Below, in pieces: positions 51,886-64,000 of a DNA stretch of 64,000 nt. Source of the stretch: Verrucomicrobiota bacterium (GTDB lineage Bacteria; Verrucomicrobiota; Verrucomicrobiia; Limisphaerales; AAA164-E04); assembly GCA_047947115.1 (NCBI GenBank), contig CP170459.1, positions 5,728,001-5,792,000 of the forward strand. The letters run 5' to 3'. Both the position numbers and the translations under genes were made by a program. The notes beneath the pieces are model-generated. The model was not told where the DNA came from. It worked only from the letters and a program-made list of their open reading frames with translations, and did no database searches. The first letter of the stretch is position 1; each line of letters begins with the position of its first letter.

Positions 51886-53907
51886 ATGAATTGGCAAACA
51901 GCACATGCTTCAGTCAAGCTATTGAAAAGGATAGCCTTCCTCGGAATCATCCAAAGCAGCCTCTGTTGCCTGCTTCAGGCTGAACAAAAAGAACCTGACT
52001 GGCAAACAGACATAGAGCCGGTCTTGAATGACCACTGTGTCAAATGCCATGGCCCGCTAAAACGTAAAGGAGACCTCGATCTCAGCACCTTTCATGGTCT
52101 GATTAAAGGAGGCGAGAACGGTCCGGTCCTGATTGCCGGAATGCCCGACACAAGTCCGGTCTACACCGTGCTGCTGGAGGGATCCGACCCTCACATGCCT
52201 CCCAAAAAACAACTGGAAACCAGGTCCATTGATTTAATCAGGGAGTGGATTCTTCATTTCAAGGAAATTGCCCCCATTGCAGGCGACCAAGAATGGACGG
52301 ATGCCAGTCCTGAACCTGCGGAACCGGAGAATTTACCCGCCCCTCCGAAAAACCTTACCCCTTCGCAAGCCATCGACTACTTCATCGAGACCAGGCTCGA
52401 ACAGGAGGGTATCACTCCGACCCCGGTATGTGATGACCGAACATTCCAGCGTCGCCTTTATCTGGATCTCATCGGACGGCCCCCCTCGATACAGGAATCC
52501 GAGCGATTTCTACGGAGCGGTTCCATTGCCAAACGAGCTGAAGAGGTCGACAGATTGCTCAAAAATGAATCGTTCGCGGTTCACTTTACCGAGTTATTCG
52601 ATGTATTCCTGATGGAGCGTCGCGGCAAACGGTGGGAGGATCGGCGCAAGGAGAATGGCTGGCATGATTTTTTAAAATCATCCTTTGCGGAGAACAGGCC
52701 CTGGGACCAGGTCACTCGTCAGATCATCCTGGCCAGACCGGATGAAACTCATTCAACGCCTATGGGAAGCATGTGGTTCCTGTATGAACGGGAGGACAAC
52801 CATCAGGCCATGGCTGAAGCCATCGCCCCCATCGTGTTCGGCACTCAAATCAAATGCGCCCAGTGCCACGACCACCCGCTGGCTCATGAGATCAAACAGG
52901 GCCACTATTGGGCCATGGTGGCGGCATTCAATCGCAGCAGGAATGTCAAAACCCCCAGAGGCATAGGCATCGCTGAATCCGCCGTTGGCGGTTTCATCAG
53001 TTTCGCCAATTTAAAAAAGGAATCCCAACCGGCAACACTTACCTTTCTCAACGGCGTCTCCGTTGAAGAGACGCGTCCCGATCCGGATGCCAATGATTCC
53101 GACCTTCCTAAGTATTACCTGATCGCTCCGCCCGAGGGAGATCAACAGCCTCAAGAACCTTCCATCCCCAAATTCTCCCGCCGAGAGGTCCTTGCAGATG
53201 CGGTCACAGTCGACAACCCATTGCTTGCCCGTTCCATGGTCAACCGTCTTTGGGCACTCATGATGGGGCGCGGCATCGTGCATCCGGTGGATGAAATGAA
53301 TTCGAAACACCCACCCAGCCATCCGGCACTGCTCCATTGGCTGTCGCTGGATTTTGAAGAGCATGGATATGACGTGCAACGCCTCGTTCGGACATTGGTT
53401 CTGAGCGAAACCTATCAACGCTCGACCTGGATCGGACAGGATCGACCGCACGCGGTCGACACTTTCGCTTGGGCTGCGGAGAAACCACTCTCGGCCGAAA
53501 CAGCGTTCCGGTCACTGCTGGCAGCCACCGGGCAGGATCTCGGCAAACCGTCGTCAGATAACGCCGTTCAGGCATTACGGCAGGCATTCATTGAACATTT
53601 CCCGGATCTGCTCCCGGTTGAATACAACGCAACCCTTCAGCAAGCCATGTTTCTGTCCAATTCACCGCTGGTTCAGTCCCTGCTGGAACCCAAAGCCGGG
53701 AACACTGCCGAAAAGCTGTTAGATATCGAAAACATCAACCAACGCGTTCGCGAGGCGTTTCTCTTTGTCTACGGCAGATGGCCGGATGCCTCTGAAAAGG
53801 AAGCAGCCACACAATTCCTGATCCATCGCGAGGATCGCCCCAAAGAAGGCGTTCAACAATTGTTGTGGACCTTGATCACAAGCGCGGAGTTTCTGACCAA
53901 TCACTAA
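51886..53907 (+). CDS. Planctomycete cytochrome c + DUF1549 + DUF1553 protein
   Basis: CVKCH..MPP, RRLYLDLIGRPP, CAQCHDHP, VNRLW..MGRG.V.PVD, PSHP.LL, S.EF..NH. Confidence 0.9.
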   Translation: MNWQTAHASVKLLKRIAFLGIIQSSLCCLLQAEQKEPDWQTDIEPVLNDHCVKCHGPLKRKGDLDLSTFHGLIKGGENGPVLIAGMPDTSPVYTVLLEGSDPHMPPKKQLETRSIDLIREWILHFKEIAPIAGDQEWTDASPEPAEPENLPAPPKNLTPSQAIDYFIETRLEQEGITPTPVCDDRTFQRRLYLDLIGRPPSIQESERFLRSGSIAKRAEEVDRLLKNESFAVHFTELFDVFLMERRGKRWEDRRKENGWHDFLKSSFAENRPWDQVTRQIILARPDETHSTPMGSMWFLYEREDNHQAMAEAIAPIVFGTQIKCAQCHDHPLAHEIKQGHYWAMVAAFNRSRNVKTPRGIGIAESAVGGFISFANLKKESQPATLTFLNGVSVEETRPDPDANDSDLPKYYLIAPPEGDQQPQEPSIPKFSRREVLADAVTVDNPLLARSMVNRLWALMMGRGIVHPVDEMNSKHPPSHPALLHWLSLDFEEHGYDVQRLVRTLVLSETYQRSTWIGQDRPHAVDTFAWAAEKPLSAETAFRSLLAATGQDLGKPSSDNAVQALRQAFIEHFPDLLPVEYNATLQQAMFLSNSPLVQSLLEPKAGNTAEKLLDIENINQRVREAFLFVYGRWPDASEKEAATQFLIHREDRPKEGVQQLLWTLITSAEFLTNH

Positions 53908-53915
53908 ACTCACCC

Positions 53916-55250
53916 ATGAACCCAAAACCATCCAATAACAGCCCCCAGCACTGCGTCACCCATGAACACACATGGCACCGTCGCAAATTCCTACAAGGCC
54001 TCGGTACAGGCATCGCAGGATCGATGTTCAGTTGGTCCGGATTGATGACACCCCAAATGTTCGCTGAGGCAGCGAAAAAGCAACAGAAGAGCTGCATCCT
54101 GCTCTGGCTCTGCGGTGCACCCAGCCAATTTGAAACATGGGATCCCAAACCAGGGCGTGCAACAAGCGGTCCGTTTGGCCATATTCCCACGAAAATTCCA
54201 GGTGTTCATTTCAGTGCGCTGATGCCAAAGTGCGCATCAATTGCGGATAAAATCTCAGTCATACGCTCCATGAAAACGGAGCCGACCGAACATTTTCAAG
54301 GCATCGACCGATTGAATCGAGGCGACGCACCGCGTCCCCCCTTCATACGTCCCTCCCTGGGAAGCGTCCTGGGTCAACAACTCGGTCAATTGGACAGCCC
54401 CATCCCTAATTTCATCCTCTTGGACCCCTGCCCTGAGGGCAATGAGTTTAAATCTTTCAAAGCTGGAAATTGGGCCGGATGGCTGGGGGCGGAGTACGGC
54501 CCCGTGAGACTTGGGGGTGAATACAGAATTCCAGATGTACAAAAACTCCCTGACATCACCACCCAGGACCATGAAGAACGTGAAGCGTTGAGACGTTTCC
54601 TGACACGTAAATTCGAGAACGATCGAAAAAGCGCTGCAGCAGCGTCGCAAAATGCCGCTTTTGAACGCGTCAAAGGACTCATGAGCTGCTCCCACCTCTT
54701 TGACCTGCAAAAGCTGCCTCAAAAGGATCGTGAGCGATACGGACAGGGCACCTTTGGCCAACACACACTGCTGGCCAGACACCTTGTAGAAAATGGGGCT
54801 CCTTTTGTGATGGTCGCCAATGGCATGCCTTGGGATTGCCACGTCTTTCAGCACGAAAACTACCAGATGCTCGTCCCTGATCTCGACAACATCATCTTCC
54901 AACTGATCAATGACCTGGACGATCGAGGCATGCGGGAAAACACCCTCGTGGTCATGATGGGCGAATTTGGACGCACACCATGGCTGAACGCCAGCCGAGG
55001 GCGAGATCACTACCCAAATGCCTGGAGCCTGGCCATGGCCGGTTGTGGTATCCAACAAGGCGTGGTAGTGGGTGAAACGGACCCTGACGGTATCGAAGTC
55101 ATTGACAAACCGTTTGATGAAAAAAACCTGTTTGCCACCATTTTCACCGCACTGGGAATTGATCCTTACGCAGCCTACGACCTCCCAGGGCTTCCGACCT
55201 TTCACCGCGTGGAACAGGAAGCATCGCCCATTCAGGAAATTTTGCTATAA
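53916..55250 (+). CDS. DUF1501 domain protein (Tat-like RRKFL)
   Basis: LWL.G.PSQ.ETWDPKP, LAR.LVE.G, WD.H, GEFGRTP, GRDH. Confidence 0.92.
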   Translation: MNPKPSNNSPQHCVTHEHTWHRRKFLQGLGTGIAGSMFSWSGLMTPQMFAEAAKKQQKSCILLWLCGAPSQFETWDPKPGRATSGPFGHIPTKIPGVHFSALMPKCASIADKISVIRSMKTEPTEHFQGIDRLNRGDAPRPPFIRPSLGSVLGQQLGQLDSPIPNFILLDPCPEGNEFKSFKAGNWAGWLGAEYGPVRLGGEYRIPDVQKLPDITTQDHEEREALRRFLTRKFENDRKSAAAASQNAAFERVKGLMSCSHLFDLQKLPQKDRERYGQGTFGQHTLLARHLVENGAPFVMVANGMPWDCHVFQHENYQMLVPDLDNIIFQLINDLDDRGMRENTLVVMMGEFGRTPWLNASRGRDHYPNAWSLAMAGCGIQQGVVVGETDPDGIEVIDKPFDEKNLFATIFTALGIDPYAAYDLPGLPTFHRVEQEASPIQEILL

Positions 55251-55282
55251 TCCATATCTGACAATCATTTGAACCTCTTCCC

Positions 55283-56344
55283 ATGAAACTGAACCTGAAC
55301 AAGGAAATCAAAATACCCACCGCAGCACTGGGAATCAGCACAATCCCCCAAAGCCGGCGCCTTCTGGTCAGTTGCTTCGATGGATCTGTTGTATTGGTGG
55401 ATCCAGACAAGGAATCTTTGGTTCCTCTTGGCACCCACTCGAGCTATGCCTCGGGTGTGATGTCTGTCCTGGAGGGTACCATGGCCGTATCAGCCGGATA
55501 CGACGGCATCCTGCAGTGGCATGACATCGAATCTCAGAAAACAGTGACTGTGGAAAAAGCTCATGATTTCTGGTCATGGCAGCTCAAAGCATCCAACAAC
55601 GGAAAGCTCGTCGCCTCCACCACCGGACAATATTTAAGCGGCGGATATAAATATGAACCAGCTCCCGAAAAAGAGCCTTCCATCAAGGTGTACGACACCG
55701 AAACCACAAAACTGCTCGCATCTTTCAGCCACCTTCCTCCGGTCTTGAGCGTTGCCTTCAGTCCAGACAATCGTTTCCTGGCCGCAGCAAACATGATGGG
55801 TGATATCAGGGTTTGGGACCTTGAATCGAAAGAACTCCTCAATGAATGGAATACTCCCGATTTCACGAGTTGGGGCATCATCAAGAGTCATCACTATATC
55901 GGAGGCATCTTCGATTTAAGCTTCGCACCGGATGGCAAAACCATTCTGGCATGCGGCATGGGACCCATGCGTGATCCGATGGCTGGCAACGGAAAACAAA
56001 CATGGCAGGAATTCGATTGGCAAAAACCCGAACCCGAAAAAATACGTGAAATCATGGACGATGAGCGCGGACGTGGATTAATGGAAACACTATCCTGGCA
56101 TCCTGATAATAAATCTTTCTGCATGGCTGGACGTATGGCCCAAGGAAACTGGAACACCGCACTTTTCGCTCATGAAACCGGTCAAATACTTCAAGGAATT
56201 GACAATAAAACCCGGGTCACAAAATCTGTATTCACAGAAGATGGAAATCAACTGATCCTTGCCGGGGCAAAAAGCCAGGGAGCCCCGGAAAAAGGTAAGT
56301 GGAAGGATTTTGGTAGATTATACATCTACGATGTTGTGCCATAA
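55283..56344 (+). CDS. WD40 repeat protein
   Basis: SAGYDG.L.W.D, VAFSPD..LAA...G.IRVWD, FAPDGK repeats. Confidence 0.88.
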   Translation: MKLNLNKEIKIPTAALGISTIPQSRRLLVSCFDGSVVLVDPDKESLVPLGTHSSYASGVMSVLEGTMAVSAGYDGILQWHDIESQKTVTVEKAHDFWSWQLKASNNGKLVASTTGQYLSGGYKYEPAPEKEPSIKVYDTETTKLLASFSHLPPVLSVAFSPDNRFLAAANMMGDIRVWDLESKELLNEWNTPDFTSWGIIKSHHYIGGIFDLSFAPDGKTILACGMGPMRDPMAGNGKQTWQEFDWQKPEPEKIREIMDDERGRGLMETLSWHPDNKSFCMAGRMAQGNWNTALFAHETGQILQGIDNKTRVTKSVFTEDGNQLILAGAKSQGAPEKGKWKDFGRLYIYDVVP

Positions 56345-56347
56345 AAA

Positions 56348-56424
56348 TGGCGGGAGCGACGGGACTCGAACCCGCAACCTCTGCCGTGACAGGGCAGCGC
56401 TCTAACCAATTGAGCTACGCCCCC
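56348..56424 (-). tRNA. tRNA-Asp (GTC)
   Basis: Revcomp GGGGGCGTAGCTCAATTGGTTAGAGCGCTGCCCTGTCACGGCAG...TTCGAGTCCCGTCGCTCCCGCCA, 77 nt. Confidence 0.97.
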
Positions 56425-56493
56425 GTTTCAAACGGGAATCGGAATGTATGCGAAATCCACGATGTTCGTCAATAGCTTATTGAAAAATTTCGC

Positions 56494-56573
56494 AAAAAAG
56501 ATTCGAGTAGCAGACGCCAAGGAGGTGGGGGTGGGGAACCCCTCTGAAGAAACGCACCACTACTCGAATCTCT
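56494..56573 (-). ncRNA. Candidate ~80-nt small RNA (long hairpin, C-rich loop, U-tail)
   Basis: 12-bp perfect inverted repeat 56499-56510/56560-56571, U-run at the 3' end, sigma70-like promoter just upstream. Confidence 0.55.
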
Positions 56574-56578
56574 GGTTA

Positions 56579-56606
56579 ATGTTAACAATTGCGTAACACA
56601 TGTCAA
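56579..56606 (-). promoter_or_regulatory. Sigma70-type promoter TTGACA-N16-TAACAT with extended TG
   Basis: Revcomp TTGACAtgtgttacgcaattgtTAACAT directly precedes the hairpin. Confidence 0.6.
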
Positions 56607-56866: not shown

Positions 56867-57460
56867 TCACACTGCCAAGAGATGCCTTTGAATCGATTCC
56901 CATTGCATAATGGTCGTAACAATTGTGGCGTCAGTCCAAATAACAAAATCACTCGCTTCCACTTTATGTTTGAGAGATAACTGTGCACCCAATCGCTTTT
57001 GAATGTGAGATTCGTCCCATCCCCTGCTGATCAAACGAGCATGTTGAGTTTTTGAAGAGCATGCCATGGCAATGATCTTGTCGAATCTTTTTTCAACTCC
57101 AGTTTCAAATAACAACGGAATAACCACTACTCCAAACGAAACACCCCTATCATCCCATTGGACCACCATGTTCTCCCAAACTTCGCGAATGCGGGGATGT
57201 AAAATTTGTTCCAGTTGTTTAAGCGAGTGATGATCATTGAAGACTATCCGGGATAACCGTTGCCGATTCAAAGAACCATCTGAAGCACAGACATCCTCAC
57301 CAAACATTTGTTTCACCAGATCAAAGGCAGGTTGACCAGGAACCAATAGTTCTCGGGAGATATCATCAGTGTCGATGACCGGCACATTCTCTGTTAAAAG
57401 GTGGCGAGTCAAAAAGCTTTTACCACAACCAATGCTTCCGGTTAATCCAACTAATTTCAT
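56867..57460 (-). CDS. coaE: Dephospho-CoA kinase
   Basis: GLTGSIGCGKS, IDTD, LNR..L...VF, ILHP.I, PLLFE. Confidence 0.95.
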   Translation of the reverse strand: MKLVGLTGSIGCGKSFLTRHLLTENVPVIDTDDISRELLVPGQPAFDLVKQMFGEDVCASDGSLNRQRLSRIVFNDHHSLKQLEQILHPRIREVWENMVVQWDDRGVSFGVVVIPLLFETGVEKRFDKIIAMACSSKTQHARLISRGWDESHIQKRLGAQLSLKHKVEASDFVIWTDATIVTTIMQWESIQRHLLAV

Positions 57461-57463
57461 AAC

Positions 57464-57494
57464 AAAAAAAGGAACCGCCGCGGCGGTTCCTTTT
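57464..57494 (-). terminator. Intrinsic terminator (perfect palindrome)
   Basis: AAAAGGAACCGCCG|CGGCGGTTCCTTTT, T7 tail on the minus strand. Confidence 0.82.
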
Positions 57495-57516: not shown

Positions 57517-60500
57517 TTACTCGGATACCGCTCTGAAGAACGACTGGGACTTGCCGCCATTTTCAACACCTCGAACCTGAAGTCTACCTTCATGATTGGT
57601 TCGACCATTGTAAATCTGCTGCCACTTGTCCAATCCTTTCGATGTTTCAAGGATATATACCTGATCGGGTTGTCCGACGATTTCAAAATCAAGACCTCCT
57701 TGATCACCTTGAGAAACATACACAGAGGCGGTTTGTTGAGGTGCTGACACGATTTCCAAAGGAAGATCGATATTATCCAAGAAAACGGCATCCTTGCCTT
57801 CGCTATTGGAAAAATCTTTCACGTATCGCCATTCAAGCAAATGTTCGCCGGCATCAATGAGAAATTCAAATCGTTGCCACTCGAGATCGCCTGACCATTC
57901 ATTAACCAGCCGTCCGTCAATAAGGAAAGAAACCACATCCCAACCTTCCTCAGTGCTGACCTTGATATCAAATTTGCCCCGTCCTCCTGAAAAGTTTTGA
58001 CGGAGACTCAAGGTAGTCGTTTGGCCATGGCCAATTGAACCTGACATCAGTGAATAACTACCCGTGAAGCTTTCGGCGTCGGTGACTGTCCAGTTAGCAC
58101 CCTCACTCTGGAATGGCTGGGAAATGACCCCTGACTCAAAGTTATCACTCACCGTGATGGGTAAAAACTGAGCCTGCACCTCGAGATTCGAATCGATTAC
58201 CAAATTCAGTGGATTATCAGTGGAATCCACACTTCCTGCCCAACCGGCAAACTGAAATCCAGCATCAGGAACTGCTGTTAGCAAAACCTCAGAGCCGACG
58301 CCAAACAGTCCGGAAGCACCATCGATAACGCCTCCCTCACCGGCAATCAATATCAACTCACGTAGTTCGGTCGGTGTGTATTGGTAACGGATTCCAAAAC
58401 TACCACCGGCGCCACCAAACCCGTCAATCACTATCCAATATTGTTTACCAGCTTCCAACGCCTGGGTAATTCTGCTTCCTGAGCTGCTTGGTGTTGCGTC
58501 ATCATTGGAGGCGACAGCAACAAGATCAACAACCTTGGAACCGGTATAGATGGCCATTAAAGTGTCAAATCGTCCTCGGCGAACAGCTATGTCGATCTGC
58601 CCATCAGCTTCAGGAGTATAAGTATACCACATCGAACGTCCACCTGCGTTTCCTGCATGAAATGGCTCACCAAATTGTTTGGTTGCATTGGAACTGTCTC
58701 CTTCAATATCCCCCTCAAGTCCCTCCAAAACCAATGCATTTTTCAAATGATCATTAACCGGGTCCGAAACGACATATGAAACAAACACTTTAGAAATCTC
58801 AGATCGATTCCCTGCAAAATCAACTGCTTGTGCTTGGATGGTATTTAAACCTGGAACCAAATAGGCAATGGTTTCCCAATCTGATACGCCTTTGGCTGAA
58901 CCACCCGAAATCTCGCCGTTAACCCGTAATTGCACCTCCTGAACACCTGAAGCGCTGGGTTCCGGATCAAATGAATAACCCTTGATCACAATTTGCTGTT
59001 GTGAGCTGATGAGTCCACTTGATGGGGATTGTATTTTAACTACAGGTGCCATTAAATCAGGAGTTCCGTTTGGCTGGATGCGAAGACGGATAGTTCCTGA
59101 AGAAGTTTCATCGTGACTTGCCACAACAATCCGGTAACTGGCACCTTTGGTTACATTAAGGTTGAGGAAACCTGCCTTGCGTGATCCACTGTTGTCCACA
59201 CTGCCAACCTCCCGAAGACTATTGAGCTCATTGCCCTCGTAAACAGCCAATATAGTGTCAAAACCACTACCGGCAGTGTCAAGAATAACGGGACCAGAGA
59301 CTGCTGGAGACCAGCTCCACCACAATGAGTGGTCTGAGAAAAAGAATCCACCGTGTGCTGGTTCGTCCTCTTCTTTCGTAGCAAACTGATTATTGGTAAT
59401 GAACCTGCCACCAGAAGGGGACACCTTGGTTGCTAAACGAAAATCATCATTAGATGGGGAGGGAACAAGTATATAAGTTAAAGATATTTCTACAGGAGCT
59501 TTACCTTCTGCCTCCACCCTGACCACCATATCGTATTCGCCTGTATTACCCGGTAAATTAATGTTGGCACTGTAAATGGCGTCTCCTGCCTTAATGTCAG
59601 GAGCAGCTCCGTCATTGGCAAAGGTTGTAACTGTCCCGTCGGGACCTGATGCGGTAACTGTGGCATCGGGAATTCCAATCAAGTCGGTTACACGAACAAA
59701 AACAGGTTGTGCTGAACCGGTTAGCAAAACAGATTGAGAAGGTGGTGTCACCGAAGCTTCTAATGTCCCATCCGGTTCTACCTGAAGAGCATTCCATGCG
59801 TTAAGACGACCTCCGGTGGAAACTTTACTCAAAAAAGCTGAAGATTTCACAGCGGAACTAAGTATCCGTTCCTTTAATTCTGCAGCTTGCGAATCTGGAA
59901 AGACAGATTTGATAAGTGCCGCAACACCGGATACGTAAGGCGCTGCAAAACTGGTTCCGTCAAGAATATCGTAATCCTCGTCTGGAGCGACAGTTGTTGA
60001 TCCGGTTCCGGTGCCAATGTTGCCAGCTTCATCCCCGCTTCCCGCAACATGAATTTCGCTACCTGGAGCCGCAATATCGACAGATGTCACACCATAATTT
60101 GAAAAATCAGCAAGAAGATCATGTCGATCAGAGGCTGCGACGGAAATGATGTTGTCGATTTCGTAGTTTGATGGGAAATGGGTAAAAATATCGTTGTTAA
60201 GACCGTCATTACCGGCTGCAGCTACAAAAAGCACTCCGTTTTCCTGCGCCAAAGCAATGGCATCAAAGAGACCTTGACCATAAGATCCCCCACCCCAGCT
60301 GGCGTTGATAATGTGAGCGCCCATTCGAACAGCGTATTCGATGGATTCAATCAAATCGGAGTCCTGACCACCGAAAGGGCCCAGGGCTTTGCATGCCATA
60401 AGCTGGACTTCCCAAGCAACACCCACAACATCTTTGTCGTCTGCAGAAGCTCCGATAATGGAAGCAACGGCGGTTCCGTGATCTTCGACATCCAATGGAT

Positions 60501-61224
60501 CACCAGTGTCATTCACTGCATTGATGCCATAAATATCATCCACCCATCCGTTGAAATCATCATCAAGCCCATTCCCTGGAATTTCACCGGAATTGACCCA
60601 CATGTTGGCAACCAATTCCTGATGAGTATAACGTATGCCTGTGTCGATAACGGCGACCAACACATCTTTGGATCCTGTTGTAATATCCCATGCTAGATCA
60701 GCATCAATATCAGCATTTTCCACACCTCCGCTCTCACCAGTGTTTTTCAAACCCCAAAGTCGGCCATCTACGTATGCTGGATCTTCTGCATCTTTATATA
60801 TACGACGAATAAAATTAGGCTCTACGTATTGGAACAAGCCAGATTGTTTCAGAACATCAATTCGTGCTTGCAAGTCCTCTGCCTGCTGCTCCTTGTTAAC
60901 CCCGGGACGATATCCCGCTCTGGGAGCATTGTGATTCACGGCAACATCCAAAAGGACTAATCCGGGGATACCTGGATATTGGCGACCAACCACCGAACCG
61001 GACTCCTGCAAGGCGGATCTAACGTCAGCGGATGTAAGCGCGCTTGTGTTATGATTGTTAAGCCTGGCCAATATGCGTGTGGGATGAACTTCGCCACCGT
61101 TTAAGGATATCCAAGGGGAACCTTCCTGTGCATTGGCAATCATACACATTACATAAAAAGTGAAGATCCCAGTTGTTAAAAACTTCATACCCTGTGTGCT
61201 TAGCCTTTTAAGAGAGTTTTTCAT
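57517..61224 (-). CDS. Secreted multidomain S8 (subtilisin-like) serine peptidase
   Basis: VAVIDTG, HGTAVAS, AAAGN, GTSFAAP triad; two PPC-like repeats (ND.F..A...ATK..EP.H...S.W..W/Y.P...FDT.LA.Y.G), Ig-like and InlB-B-like modules. Confidence 0.92.
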   Translation of the reverse strand: MKNSLKRLSTQGMKFLTTGIFTFYVMCMIANAQEGSPWISLNGGEVHPTRILARLNNHNTSALTSADVRSALQESGSVVGRQYPGIPGLVLLDVAVNHNAPRAGYRPGVNKEQQAEDLQARIDVLKQSGLFQYVEPNFIRRIYKDAEDPAYVDGRLWGLKNTGESGGVENADIDADLAWDITTGSKDVLVAVIDTGIRYTHQELVANMWVNSGEIPGNGLDDDFNGWVDDIYGINAVNDTGDPLDVEDHGTAVASIIGASADDKDVVGVAWEVQLMACKALGPFGGQDSDLIESIEYAVRMGAHIINASWGGGSYGQGLFDAIALAQENGVLFVAAAGNDGLNNDIFTHFPSNYEIDNIISVAASDRHDLLADFSNYGVTSVDIAAPGSEIHVAGSGDEAGNIGTGTGSTTVAPDEDYDILDGTSFAAPYVSGVAALIKSVFPDSQAAELKERILSSAVKSSAFLSKVSTGGRLNAWNALQVEPDGTLEASVTPPSQSVLLTGSAQPVFVRVTDLIGIPDATVTASGPDGTVTTFANDGAAPDIKAGDAIYSANINLPGNTGEYDMVVRVEAEGKAPVEISLTYILVPSPSNDDFRLATKVSPSGGRFITNNQFATKEEDEPAHGGFFFSDHSLWWSWSPAVSGPVILDTAGSGFDTILAVYEGNELNSLREVGSVDNSGSRKAGFLNLNVTKGASYRIVVASHDETSSGTIRLRIQPNGTPDLMAPVVKIQSPSSGLISSQQQIVIKGYSFDPEPSASGVQEVQLRVNGEISGGSAKGVSDWETIAYLVPGLNTIQAQAVDFAGNRSEISKVFVSYVVSDPVNDHLKNALVLEGLEGDIEGDSSNATKQFGEPFHAGNAGGRSMWYTYTPEADGQIDIAVRRGRFDTLMAIYTGSKVVDLVAVASNDDATPSSSGSRITQALEAGKQYWIVIDGFGGAGGSFGIRYQYTPTELRELILIAGEGGVIDGASGLFGVGSEVLLTAVPDAGFQFAGWAGSVDSTDNPLNLVIDSNLEVQAQFLPITVSDNFESGVISQPFQSEGANWTVTDAESFTGSYSLMSGSIGHGQTTTLSLRQNFSGGRGKFDIKVSTEEGWDVVSFLIDGRLVNEWSGDLEWQRFEFLIDAGEHLLEWRYVKDFSNSEGKDAVFLDNIDLPLEIVSAPQQTASVYVSQGDQGGLDFEIVGQPDQVYILETSKGLDKWQQIYNGRTNHEGRLQVRGVENGGKSQSFFRAVSE

Positions 61225-61253
61225 TATTATTTCAGGCAATCCGGATTGGCTCC

Positions 61254-64000
61254 TCATGGTGCATAACTGACCCGATAGAACCTACCGTGAATATCGGATC
61301 CTACATTATCTTCTACGCTGATGACCTGTCGTTCACGAGATGGATTTGAAACTGATTTCAAATAATTCCAACCCTGTTCAAAAATGTCATTCTTGAACTC
61401 AACTTTATAGGTTGTACTACCAGCAGCCATCCAAGAAATGCTGGCTGTTTGTTGAGCACCATTATCGACGCTTATTTCATTCAGTACGACCCCGTCGAAA
61501 GGGTTCACATCAAGACCGTTAGCAACACCATCCCCATCATCATCAAGAATCAGGCTTTCCTTACGTGCCTGGTTGACCAAAATTGAGGTTCCGTCCGATA
61601 ATACGACAGGAACTCCACTTAGAGGACCGGCATACTCGGGAACCCATTGAAGTTTTCCTCCAAAAGCGCCGTCCAGCTCCTCGACAGGTATGTTGGAACT
61701 TGCAAAATAAATCATCATACCCTCTTCAATGGACACTGTGCTTTGCCAGTTTTCAGCAAAATTGTCATTGAACAGCAATCTATCCACGTAAATGGCCGCA
61801 CTACCACCTCCGGAGGAGAATTTAGCTTTTGCACCGATAGGTCCTTCGATAACCAATGTGCCGATGGCAGAATTATTTTTAAAACCTGACACAGATCTAC
61901 CCAAGTCCCGGCTTTTCCAAATGTGGCTCACATTGGCAAATCTGGGAATGTTACTTTCCAACCTAGTTCCCAATAAATCACCGTTTGCAGGAGTTTGTAG
62001 CATTTGGAATCCATTATTAACCCGTATATTGTTGTTAGCATTCGGCCCTGAATCGGTCAATGTACCGGTGATATCCAAAAATAATTTGGAAGATGTATCT
62101 ATTTGGTTGTCTCGCAACTTGAAATTTGTTCCTTTCAAAACTAAATCTCTACCGGCTCCCACCGTTCCAGATTCTAATTTGCCATCAACTGCCTCAATTT
62201 CGACTCTACCACCGCTGGCAATCAAACCGGTGTTCTCGAAATAATCAGCTTTAAATCTCTGACTGAAAGCGACCACTGCACCATTGTTGATAAAGGAATC
62301 CAGTCCATCATCGATATCTGAACCATATTCGGCGAGCTCGTTTACGCTTAACGCTCCGTTCACTGTAATGTTGCGCGTTTCCGGCCAATTGGATTTGCCC
62401 AGTTGCTCGATGTGACCAAAGAAGTTTAATTCAGAATCCACGGTGAGATTCTCGGATTTAACCTGAAATGATTGAATGACGTTTAGATCATCTCCAATAA
62501 CAACGTCCGTGGCTTCAGCAACCAATTCATGTGTCAAGACATTGGCACGCGTCCTTAGCTGAGTGGCGTCAATGACAGTCATGTGGTAAAAATATGTAAT
62601 GACATTCGTGGTCATTGTCGGCTCAGCAGCAGGATCCTCTGCGGGCGTTTCTATTACGATACCAGACAAGTTTGTCCAAACGGTACTATAAGCGTAAATT
62701 TCGCCACTGAATCGATCAACCTGCGGCTTTGAAACACCGGTCATATCGAGCACACCGTTTGTGGATGCCAAACTGTAACTGATATTTTGAACATCAATTG
62801 CAGAGTTGGCTGTGTTGACCAAGTGCTTGGTGTTTACACTGATTAAACCTTCGCCTCGAATACGCGTCCCGTTTAAATCCAAAACATCGGCGTTGATTTC
62901 GACTCTCCCAGGCTGACTCTCCGATGCGGGTATCCTAGCAGAAGTGATATCTCGTTCTGTAGAACTTTCCACCAGCGCTGCATAAGCTGCATAGAAGTTG
63001 GTTACAATCGTATTTGAGAAACTGGCATTGTAAAGCAGATCAGGAGATAGCTCAGCGTTTGGTAAAGTACCATCGGACCAGCTGTAATCCTGGGTAAATG
63101 GTGCAATACGTGAGAGAGAATACGTGGAAGGTTTGTATGTGGGCTCATTTCCATTCTGCTGGAAAACAAGATTTGTATCCCAAGCCAGTGTATCCGTCAT
63201 GTAGAGAGTAAACAGATCAGAGCTACCAGTAACAACGTTGGTTAATGGAACGCTGTATTCAATCATGGCTGTACTGATATTGTTAGTAACAGGACTTGTG
63301 TCAAAACGAACCTGAGTCTGAATTCTACTGTCTCCCAAGGCTGAAAAAACAGCTTGTACGATGATATTTGTTTCTGTAATAGCATTGGAGATGATAAAGG
63401 CATCCGCACCTTGCAATGCTACAGTGGCAAATTGTGGAAACAAAGCAGTGTTTGTTACTTGATGACCAGGAGAAATGATATTGGCACTGCTACCTACAAC
63501 ATTTAGAAAACCGGACGAATCAACTAAACCATTTGTCAGGCCACCCCAATATTGATCAAATACACCAGCTTCGGGATTAAAATTTGTCCCAAAAGAAGAT
63601 GAACCAGTTCCCCGTAAGGGGGCAACGAGTAAACCACCATCACTTAAATCGACGTGGTCACCGTTAATGCTCAATAATCCAGATGAACCGACGGAAATAA
63701 GTCCGTGGTTTTGAATATTGGTGGCATTCACAACGACTCGATTGGGAGTGTTGGAAAGAGCATTCACTTGAGCCCCCACTCCATTAAAAAATGAACTGGC
63801 TTTCGAATGTGCTCCACCGTCGCTGATATGTTCAAAAATAAAACCAGCTTGACTGTTCATCACGCCATAATTGGTATAGTTTAGCGTGTTTTGAGTATCG
63901 AATGGCAGGGGTGAAGAAAACTCGGAAAAAGATCCTTGATTTATGAAAGTAACCGCATTGACAGGGAGATCATCGAGTGCATCGACAAATCCCTTATTGA
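61254..64000 (-). CDS. Large secreted/surface protein, beta-rich (5' end outside window)
   Basis: Frame stays open to the window edge; Asn/Thr/Ser-rich; DDDGDGVANGLD Ca-binding-like motif; C-terminal RFYRV domain. Confidence 0.8.
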   Translation of the reverse strand, partial: NKGFVDALDDLPVNAVTFINQGSFSEFSSPLPFDTQNTLNYTNYGVMNSQAGFIFEHISDGGAHSKASSFFNGVGAQVNALSNTPNRVVVNATNIQNHGLISVGSSGLLSINGDHVDLSDGGLLVAPLRGTGSSSFGTNFNPEAGVFDQYWGGLTNGLVDSSGFLNVVGSSANIISPGHQVTNTALFPQFATVALQGADAFIISNAITETNIIVQAVFSALGDSRIQTQVRFDTSPVTNNISTAMIEYSVPLTNVVTGSSDLFTLYMTDTLAWDTNLVFQQNGNEPTYKPSTYSLSRIAPFTQDYSWSDGTLPNAELSPDLLYNASFSNTIVTNFYAAYAALVESSTERDITSARIPASESQPGRVEINADVLDLNGTRIRGEGLISVNTKHLVNTANSAIDVQNISYSLASTNGVLDMTGVSKPQVDRFSGEIYAYSTVWTNLSGIVIETPAEDPAAEPTMTTNVITYFYHMTVIDATQLRTRANVLTHELVAEATDVVIGDDLNVIQSFQVKSENLTVDSELNFFGHIEQLGKSNWPETRNITVNGALSVNELAEYGSDIDDGLDSFINNGAVVAFSQRFKADYFENTGLIASGGRVEIEAVDGKLESGTVGAGRDLVLKGTNFKLRDNQIDTSSKLFLDITGTLTDSGPNANNNIRVNNGFQMLQTPANGDLLGTRLESNIPRFANVSHIWKSRDLGRSVSGFKNNSAIGTLVIEGPIGAKAKFSSGGGSAAIYVDRLLFNDNFAENWQSTVSIEEGMMIYFASSNIPVEELDGAFGGKLQWVPEYAGPLSGVPVVLSDGTSILVNQARKESLILDDDGDGVANGLDVNPFDGVVLNEISVDNGAQQTASISWMAAGSTTYKVEFKNDIFEQGWNYLKSVSNPSRERQVISVEDNVGSDIHGRFYRVSYAP

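Follow-up and report, generated by a model that had tools for sequence, protein, structure and literature searches.

A conserved RNA family, apparently undescribed, has a member on the minus strand of the window analysed here (64,000 nt of a Limisphaerales genome, phylum Verrucomicrobiota), where a gene of about 80 nt is predicted to encode one long hairpin with an exposed anti-Shine-Dalgarno (anti-SD)-like motif. Our best explanation, held tentatively and a little short of an even chance, is a chaperone-free antisense RNA directed against the SD-bearing minority of mRNAs. It would give Verrucomicrobiota, an abundant phylum of soil and water, a conserved small RNA family, and we found no comparable RNA described there.

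Locus and fold of the hairpin RNA

Read along the minus strand, TTGACA (56606-56601), a 16-nt spacer and TAACAT (56584-56579) precede the hairpin (56573-56494) and its U-run (56499-56494), and the tRNA-Asp that follows has its own TTGACG-N18-TACATT at 56472-56443, all in agreement with the initial annotation (Table 1). Transcription of the hairpin RNA is predicted to start at about 56572-56573, and the promoter match upstream of it, taken alone, is at chance level (3 found vs 2.5 expected). The closing stem and the U-tail probably double as an intrinsic terminator, possibly a leaky one; the terminator scan, with its loop limit of 8 nt, did not list the hairpin. Around the locus we also noted a perfect 12-bp inverted repeat with a T-tract, terminator-like, between the subtilase gene and coaE (57467-57494, minus strand); a 1246-aa S8 subtilase surface protein encoded after an 869-aa protein with no Pfam match (window 57517-63863, minus strand); a cluster of DUF1549/DUF1553 cytochrome c, DUF1501 and WD40 genes typical of PVC bacteria (window 51886-56344, plus strand); and, elsewhere in the source genome, a tRNA-Sec and a second, 99-nt tRNA-Asp-like call (2340339-2340435 and 6049112-6049210).

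Table 1. Features of the hairpin RNA locus, in window coordinates
Feature	Position	Strand	Basis or remark
Hairpin RNA gene (predicted), about 80 nt, folding as a single long hairpin interrupted by an internal loop	56494..56573	-	Fold, covariation (85 homologs), RNA-library contigs up to 56521-56560
Sigma70-type promoter-like site TTGACA-N16-TAACAT	56579..56606	-	10/12 consensus matches; conserved upstream TTGAC-like -35
Closing stem, 5′ arm, ending in conserved CGUU	56551..56572	-	Fold and covariation
Internal loop, 5′ strand UCUUCAGA	56543..56550	-	Near-invariant in own order, variable in other classes
Apical 5-bp hairpin GGGGU-UCCCC-ACCCC	56528..56542	-	Compensatory variants; divergent members lack or replace it
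Exposed anti-SD-like motif CACCUCCUU, internal loop 3′ strand	56519..56527	-	16S match, unpaired in fold, conserved
Closing stem, 3′ arm, beginning with conserved GGCG held by two U-G wobble pairs	56498..56518	-	Fold and covariation
U-tail (six U) of hairpin RNA	56494..56499	-	Sequence; conserved across groups
tRNA-Asp promoter-like site TTGACG-N18-TACATT	56443..56472	-	Promoter scan
tRNA-Asp(GTC)	56348..56424	-	Syntenic with hairpin RNA within own order only
coaE, dephospho-CoA kinase, upstream neighbour	56867..57460	-	PF01121; not conserved beside the RNA past the closest relative

The hairpin folds at -36 kcal/mol (z = -5.07; 0/200 shuffled sequences were equally stable) into a 21-bp closing stem, an internal loop of 8 x 9 nt and a 5-bp apical hairpin. 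The 16S of the source genome ends GGAUCACCUCCUUUCU, and the motif CACCUCCUU, identical to part of that end over 9 nt, is unpaired in the fold with a probability of 0.6-0.9. The anti-SD had originally been placed in a C-rich apex; its 16S match stands, and its position is corrected to the internal loop, below the apical hairpin and outside the apical loop. The source genome has 66 occurrences of CACCTCCTT; the feature rises above chance because of its conservation across genomes.

Covariation and the conserved motif

We aligned 85 selected homologs to covariance model R1, so that the alignment is fitted to the model; within it, 21/24 pairs showed double-sided (compensatory) change and 95.0% of cells paired, a level that 0/500 shuffles equalled, with slid controls at 39-53%. 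Double-sided change was already present in 6/24 pairs of an unfitted alignment of 20 sequences. Pairs changing on both sides comprised 14/14 in the outer stem, 2/5 in the inner stem and 5/5 in the apical hairpin, and this covariation bears out the earlier reading of a structured RNA; one G-C pair of the junction never varies in the 85-homolog alignment. The frequent U-G pairs fix the transcribed strand.

The unpaired columns C-U-C-C-U-U were kept in 83, 84, 85, 85, 84 and 83 of the 85 homologs, with CTCCTT intact in 80/85 and ACCTCCTT in 71/85. The two Gs 3′ of CUCCUU, kept in 81/85 each, lie opposite U, not C, and so pair weakly, and TTCTTCA, from the 5′ strand of the internal loop, was present in 45/85. 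Inside the window's own order the entire apex is near-invariant, beyond what a seed would require, which counts against antisense action; in divergent members the apical hairpin is replaced or lost and CGUU...CUCCUUG(G)CG is kept. Several variants were also seen: L263 and L264 (in G138 and G168) have a longer form whose loop contains two small hairpins and which has CUCCUCCUAGG ahead of the closing stem; L094, L096, L100 and L101 are minimal forms without the apical hairpin that keep CUCCUUG or UUCCUUG behind GAAC...GTC promoters; and one locus (L074:1501-1699, G412:C280) holds a tandem pair of RNA copies separated by 118 nt, of which the first lacks a U-tail.

Distribution and novelty

The hairpin RNA is single-copy in the source genome by both BLAST and covariance model. 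With the 441-nt interval as BLAST query, 28/40 relatives matched at E ≤ 2.2e-6, mostly over the hairpin alone, and model R1, built from 20 sequences, matched 59/150 genomes of the class, including 18/19 of the own order. Across the phylum, BLAST gave matches in 28/301 genomes at E ≤ 0.01, a few of them by chance, and model R2 in 18/150, a patchy distribution in Verrucomicrobiota outside the own order; R2 found no match in families f23 (0/14), f24 (0/8) and f25 (0/15), with 30 candidates scored per genome. Weak model matches in four further genomes (E 0.13-0.99) were judged chance after folding and excluded. A pattern scan of GTDB returned at least 120 loci; among the 80 listed, most belong to Verrucomicrobiota (Limisphaerales, Pedosphaera, Kiritimatiellia, Lentisphaerota) and a few bear other names, one Patescibacteria among them. 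Carrier genomes hold 1 to 8 copies, with paralogs numbering up to 6-8 in some.

The family had earlier been called unrecognised, and a search of Rfam 15 agrees, returning no family for the window, nor for 19 homolog loci (12 with best matches at chance level, 7 with tRNA only). A divergent 6S or SRP RNA was rejected, since the SRP (65.1 bits) and 6S-like matches map elsewhere in the genome; the 6S-like RNA (L229, G000:C1:1157649-1157830, minus strand) scored 44.3 bits, just below the Rfam cut-off of 46.4. We found no published account of the hairpin RNA in the literature, mostly open-access. Earlier motif surveys may, however, have listed it as an unnamed candidate. The string 'Verruc' is absent from the main text of PMC11109978.

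Evidence for a stand-alone gene

Promoter-like sites and U-tails recur at the homologs (nine loci that could not be parsed are left out of these counts). A TTGAC-like -35 lies upstream in 33/35 loci of the own order, 11/24 of other orders, 15/36 of other classes and 5/5 of Patescibacteria, against a background of 17%; a GAAC-N16-19-GTC site, which we take to resemble ECF sigma promoters, in 1 locus, 12/24, 9/36 and 0, respectively (background 1.2%); and a U-tail follows in 30/35, 23/24, 29/36 and 3/5 (background 26%). No conserved neighbour gene was found among the 60 of 169 flanking ORFs scanned, the proteins varying in identity and direction, and these varying neighbours, together with the RNA's own promoter-like site, argue for a stand-alone gene and not a leader.

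Eight RNA runs (metatranscriptome contigs without strand or ends) were chosen because they contain a stretch of the locus. Contigs of runs X6, X8, X7, X10 and X12 reach from the tRNA up to 56560, 56553, 56530, 56521 and 56537, respectively, extending past the tRNA promoter and ending short of the predicted RNA start; the X9 contig ends at 56483, and X1 and X4, with cover over the entire region, are uninformative. Runs X6, X7, X8, X9, X10 and X12 show a gap in cover from 56561 to about 56865, which alone proves nothing. Together the contigs give a weak hint of transcription from the hairpin promoter with some read-through into tRNA-Asp. The independent transcript proposed in the initial annotation is thus upheld in part: promoter and U-tail are kept while neighbours change, but the contigs of five runs join the hairpin to the tRNA, which is weak evidence against it.

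These data also bear on whether the sequence is a mere terminator, a tRNA-Asp leader or a REP/MITE-like repeat without an RNA function of its own. The downstream tRNA-Asp in 17/19 relative loci, the contigs linking the two and the 6-8 copies in some genomes would suit such a reading, but the hairpin occurs once here and at most 6-8 times in relatives, which is not the abundance of the dispersed repeat considered earlier, and its promoter-like site stands directly upstream with no intervening gene. Upstream genes, moreover, lie in either orientation, and the loop is invariant while the stems covary. The tRNA-Asp, present within about 260 nt in 65/120 pattern loci (of at least 120), is absent from 55/120 and from the Patescibacteria loci. 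Mobile carriage was likewise not seen, with 0 matches to two patterns in viral contigs, none in plasmids and three phage matches attributable to chance. We find this reading scarcely credible, and terminator, leader and repeat are largely excluded.

Proposed pairing with Shine-Dalgarno sequences

The sequence features of a trans-acting anti-SD small RNA are present, namely promoter- and terminator-like ends and a conserved accessible seed, and the invariant CUCCUU on freely changing stems is the usual pattern of a seed on a scaffold. This invariant seed, with its adjacent weak pairs, the paralogs and the stress-type promoters, points to antisense action on AAGGAG sites. Under this explanation, the RNA would be transcribed as an 80-nt product whose exposed CUCCUU(GG) loop pairs in trans with AAGGAG-type SD sequences and so keeps ribosomes from loading onto the SD-bearing minority of mRNAs; melting of the two weak U-G pairs may extend the seed to CUCCUUGGC. 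The G-C-rich pairing could be chaperone-free as in 6C RNA, a published precedent for chaperone-free C-rich pairing (PMC6486639); neither Hfq nor CsrA had a match in the source genome. In SD-poor hosts the targets would be those few messages led by an SD, namely from operon-internal coupled genes and from genes that were recently acquired or belong to phages; in other lineages, where many copies lie behind an ECF-like promoter, the RNA would act conditionally.

Strong SDs are few in the source genome and lie mostly at operon-internal genes. Using gene calls made in this analysis (4067 genes, with rpsU missing from the set), we counted SD matches at starts vs control windows of 364 vs 354 of 4066 at ≤ -8 kcal/mol and 64 vs 49 at ≤ -12 (separate count, 166 vs 159 of 4067). 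Genome-wide, C is enriched at start codon position -1 (39-42%), in place of SD signals. Verrucomicrobiales are described as likewise SD-poor, with anti-SD occlusion left open there (PMC10798248), and Kiritimatiellae as having 63% SD use (PMC10783764), so that carriers of the RNA include SD-rich lineages.

Within the source genome, seed pairing with start regions was no better than with coding controls, CCAAGGAG lay upstream of 0/4067 predicted starts (a few alternative starts have it), and no conserved mRNA target was found; rpsU and the RpoS-like sigma gene, checked across the order, gained no support. An 'RBS clamp' (UUUCUUCA vs AUGAAGAAA plus the anti-SD) was dropped, its three exact bipartite sites near starts belonging to unrelated genes that form no convincing set, and was further weakened by a 5′ loop strand that is variable outside the own order. 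Pairing with 16S, 23S, tmRNA, 6S and SRP RNA did not rise above random controls; the best of these, near position 1180 of 16S, was reached by 2/20 controls and requires the covarying apex to melt. A CsrB/RsmZ-type sponge on the opposite strand was also rejected, with CsrA not found and with the promoter, U-tail and U-G pairs favouring the C-rich strand. The SD-poor hosts, the missing targets and the carriers without a 16S anti-SD limit our confidence in antisense action, and any targets would form a minority or foreign set; with SD matches equal to control, the RBS targeting first suggested for this RNA is plausible but unproven.

rpsU, bS21 and the 16S tail

bS21 was found in 41/41 genomes of the own order. 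In 27/30 order loci the pairing of the rpsU leader with the 16S tail is at ≤ -8, and none of the 27 is weaker than -13.7; the extended SD of rpsU precedes mostly a TTG or GTG start (L268, G000:C1:1316636-1316833, plus strand; L269-L327). Residue 54 of bS21, assigned by gapless alignment to Tyr54 of 9I5V and of residues 4-53 to F. johnsoniae 7JIL, is Phe in 30/30 order loci. Outside the order, a strong rpsU SD was present in 14/15 carriers vs 5/11 non-carriers (4/30 loci unparsed), one non-carrier later giving an RNA match. By analogy, Bacteroidia-like anti-SD occlusion and bS21 autoregulation are likely in Verrucomicrobia; the autoregulation is known in Bacteroidota (PMC9976891, PMC7797042), and the passages of PMC9976891 concerned leave Verrucomicrobia unmentioned. 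The strong rpsU SD and Phe54 thereby bear on the question of verrucomicrobial anti-SD occlusion posed in PMC10798248, which is now testable. As a direct target of the RNA, rpsU, the only conserved gene with a strong SD that was found, was rejected: its leader pairs more strongly with the 16S tail (-15.6) than with the RNA loop (-9.6), and cofolding brought no gain.

An alternative that we consider unlikely, if worth weighing, is that the RNA is a decoy mimicking the 16S 3′ tail (a short hairpin followed by ACCUCCUU) and binding proteins that grip the anti-SD, be it the bS21/bS18/bS6 platform pocket, free bS21 or an anti-SD-cutting nuclease, so as to tune the occlusion or protection of the real anti-SD. 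Its conserved letters are those of A1534-U1541, which bS21 Tyr54 and bS18 contact in Flavobacterium (PMC7797042); the order is Bacteroidia-like in being SD-poor, in its very strong rpsU SD and in the Phe at the Tyr54 position; anti-SD-cutting toxins exist; and a decoy would account for the link to rpsU-type regulation. The real tail, however, is a free 3′ end, whereas the motif of the RNA is closed in an internal loop and comes without GAUCA (0/85) and without the terminal UUCU. Furthermore, Phe or Tyr at position 54 does not follow the RNA (2/15 other carriers, 8/11 non-carriers), the rpsU co-occurrence is among kin and hence not independent, and in the Patescibacteria carriers there is no such tail for the RNA to mimic and the bS21-like proteins are all divergent.

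Carriers in Patescibacteria

Two of the pattern matches (among at least 120 loci) lie in 0.7-Mb genomes of one Patescibacteria family. R2 matched 6/41 genomes of this family and 3/150 of its order, one of them weakly, and among 150 genomes of the Patescibacteria phylum only the centre genome matched. Synteny is lacking among these copies, which are surrounded by core genes, are preceded by promoter-like sites of their own and contain new compensatory pairs; contamination was rejected as their source, two matches being located on 292-kb and 523-kb contigs with core genes. The 16S end was readable in 4/5 carriers queried (G637, G639, G618, G628; L339-L342), and 4/4 were without CCUCC, an anti-SD loss already described for roughly half of Parcubacteria (PMC9297842). 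At ≤ -7, two carriers had no more SD matches than control (33 vs 64 of 531 and 35 vs 37 of 548, control second), although carrier G639 had 16 vs 5 control at ≤ -10.

One carrier, G618 (L406:5941-7134, minus strand, C3), encodes an RpoS-like sigma factor that is 61-68% identical to most of its best matches in the window's order and about 45% identical to the RpoD of its own family, and that nests among sigmas of the window's order with support of 98/98 in a tree holding no other phyla and no clade test. Extra sigma factors were also seen in G607, G629, G636 and G642 (L425-L428). The RpoS-like sigma was rejected as a partner or target, since it was not co-distributed with the RNA in 41 family genomes and the loci that could be parsed, 27 of 30, showed no conserved site. 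The RNA in Patescibacteria was probably acquired from Verrucomicrobia, and the shared RNA and the Limisphaerales-like sigma in one carrier hint at Verrucomicrobia-Patescibacteria gene flow and may be a lead to hosts.

The distribution presents a paradox, with an invariant anti-SD in bacteria that barely use SDs and in Patescibacteria without a 16S anti-SD. A rather improbable reading is that the RNA serves some unnamed protein, as a small ribonucleoprotein or a protein sponge, through its CGUU/CUCCUUGGCG junction, the anti-SD likeness being incidental. The junction with its tandem U-G pairs and invariant G-C pair is indeed the smallest conserved unit, persisting also in members that have lost the apical hairpin, and it is kept, with new compensatory pairs, in anti-SD-less genomes. 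On the other hand, comparison of two Patescibacteria carriers with the source genome turned up no common partner, giving one Verrucomicrobia-like protein, the RpoS-like sigma that does not co-occur with the RNA across the 41 genomes; and since most members match the 16S tail exactly over 8-9 nt, we infer that coincidence is unlikely. A decided long shot is that the RNA is a free-standing copy of the anti-SD tail: verrucomicrobial ribosomes would hide their tail in the bS21 pocket, the RNA would compete for that pocket and switch SD-dependent translation on or off, and anti-SD-less Patescibacteria would have taken the gene from Verrucomicrobia to serve as their anti-SD in trans or to manipulate a verrucomicrobial host. 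Antisense pairing with SD-bearing mRNAs remains the reading we prefer.

Comparison with known systems

The resemblance to 6C and cuckoo RNAs proposed in the initial annotation holds as an analogy, but the defining motifs of cuckoo RNAs, 6C RNA and Yfr1 did not carry over. 6C RNA comprises two hairpins whose terminal loops have runs of six C, whereas CCCCCC occurs in 1/85 homologs of the hairpin RNA, whose apex C-runs are paired in a covarying stem. The 6C RNA of Actinobacteria likewise combines accessible C-rich loops with chaperone-independent mRNA pairing (PMC6486639), as we propose here. Yfr1 of cyanobacteria is likewise short (54-69 nt), phylum-wide and found in a low-SD lineage, with one ultraconserved unpaired C-rich motif (PMC2190773), but that motif, ACUCCUCACAC, lies between two separate stem-loops, and the hairpin RNA has neither the motif (0/85) nor the layout.

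The cuckoo RNAs of Alphaproteobacteria (RSs0680/CcsR; PMC4615179) share with the hairpin RNA a single-stranded anti-SD-like CCUCCU motif on variable stems, the occurrence of paralogs and, in some, stress-sigma promoters. They are described as 2-4 adjacent hairpins with CCUCCUCCC in each terminal loop, and as binding Hfq, whereas the hairpin RNA is one hairpin with CCUCCUU(GG) in an internal loop, in a host in which Hfq was not found; CCUCCUCCC was present in 0/85 homologs, and 84/85 folds had one terminal loop. The 16S 3′ end itself (h45 and the anti-SD) differs in that the hairpin RNA is a separate 80-nt gene without GAUCA, the h45 sequence or a free 3′ tail. The 16S end is likewise a hairpin followed by ACCUCCUU, which in Bacteroidia is sequestered by bS21/bS18/bS6 (PMC7797042, PMC9976891), and the host order resembles Bacteroidia in having few SDs, in its very strong rpsU SD and in the aromatic residue at position 54 of bS21.
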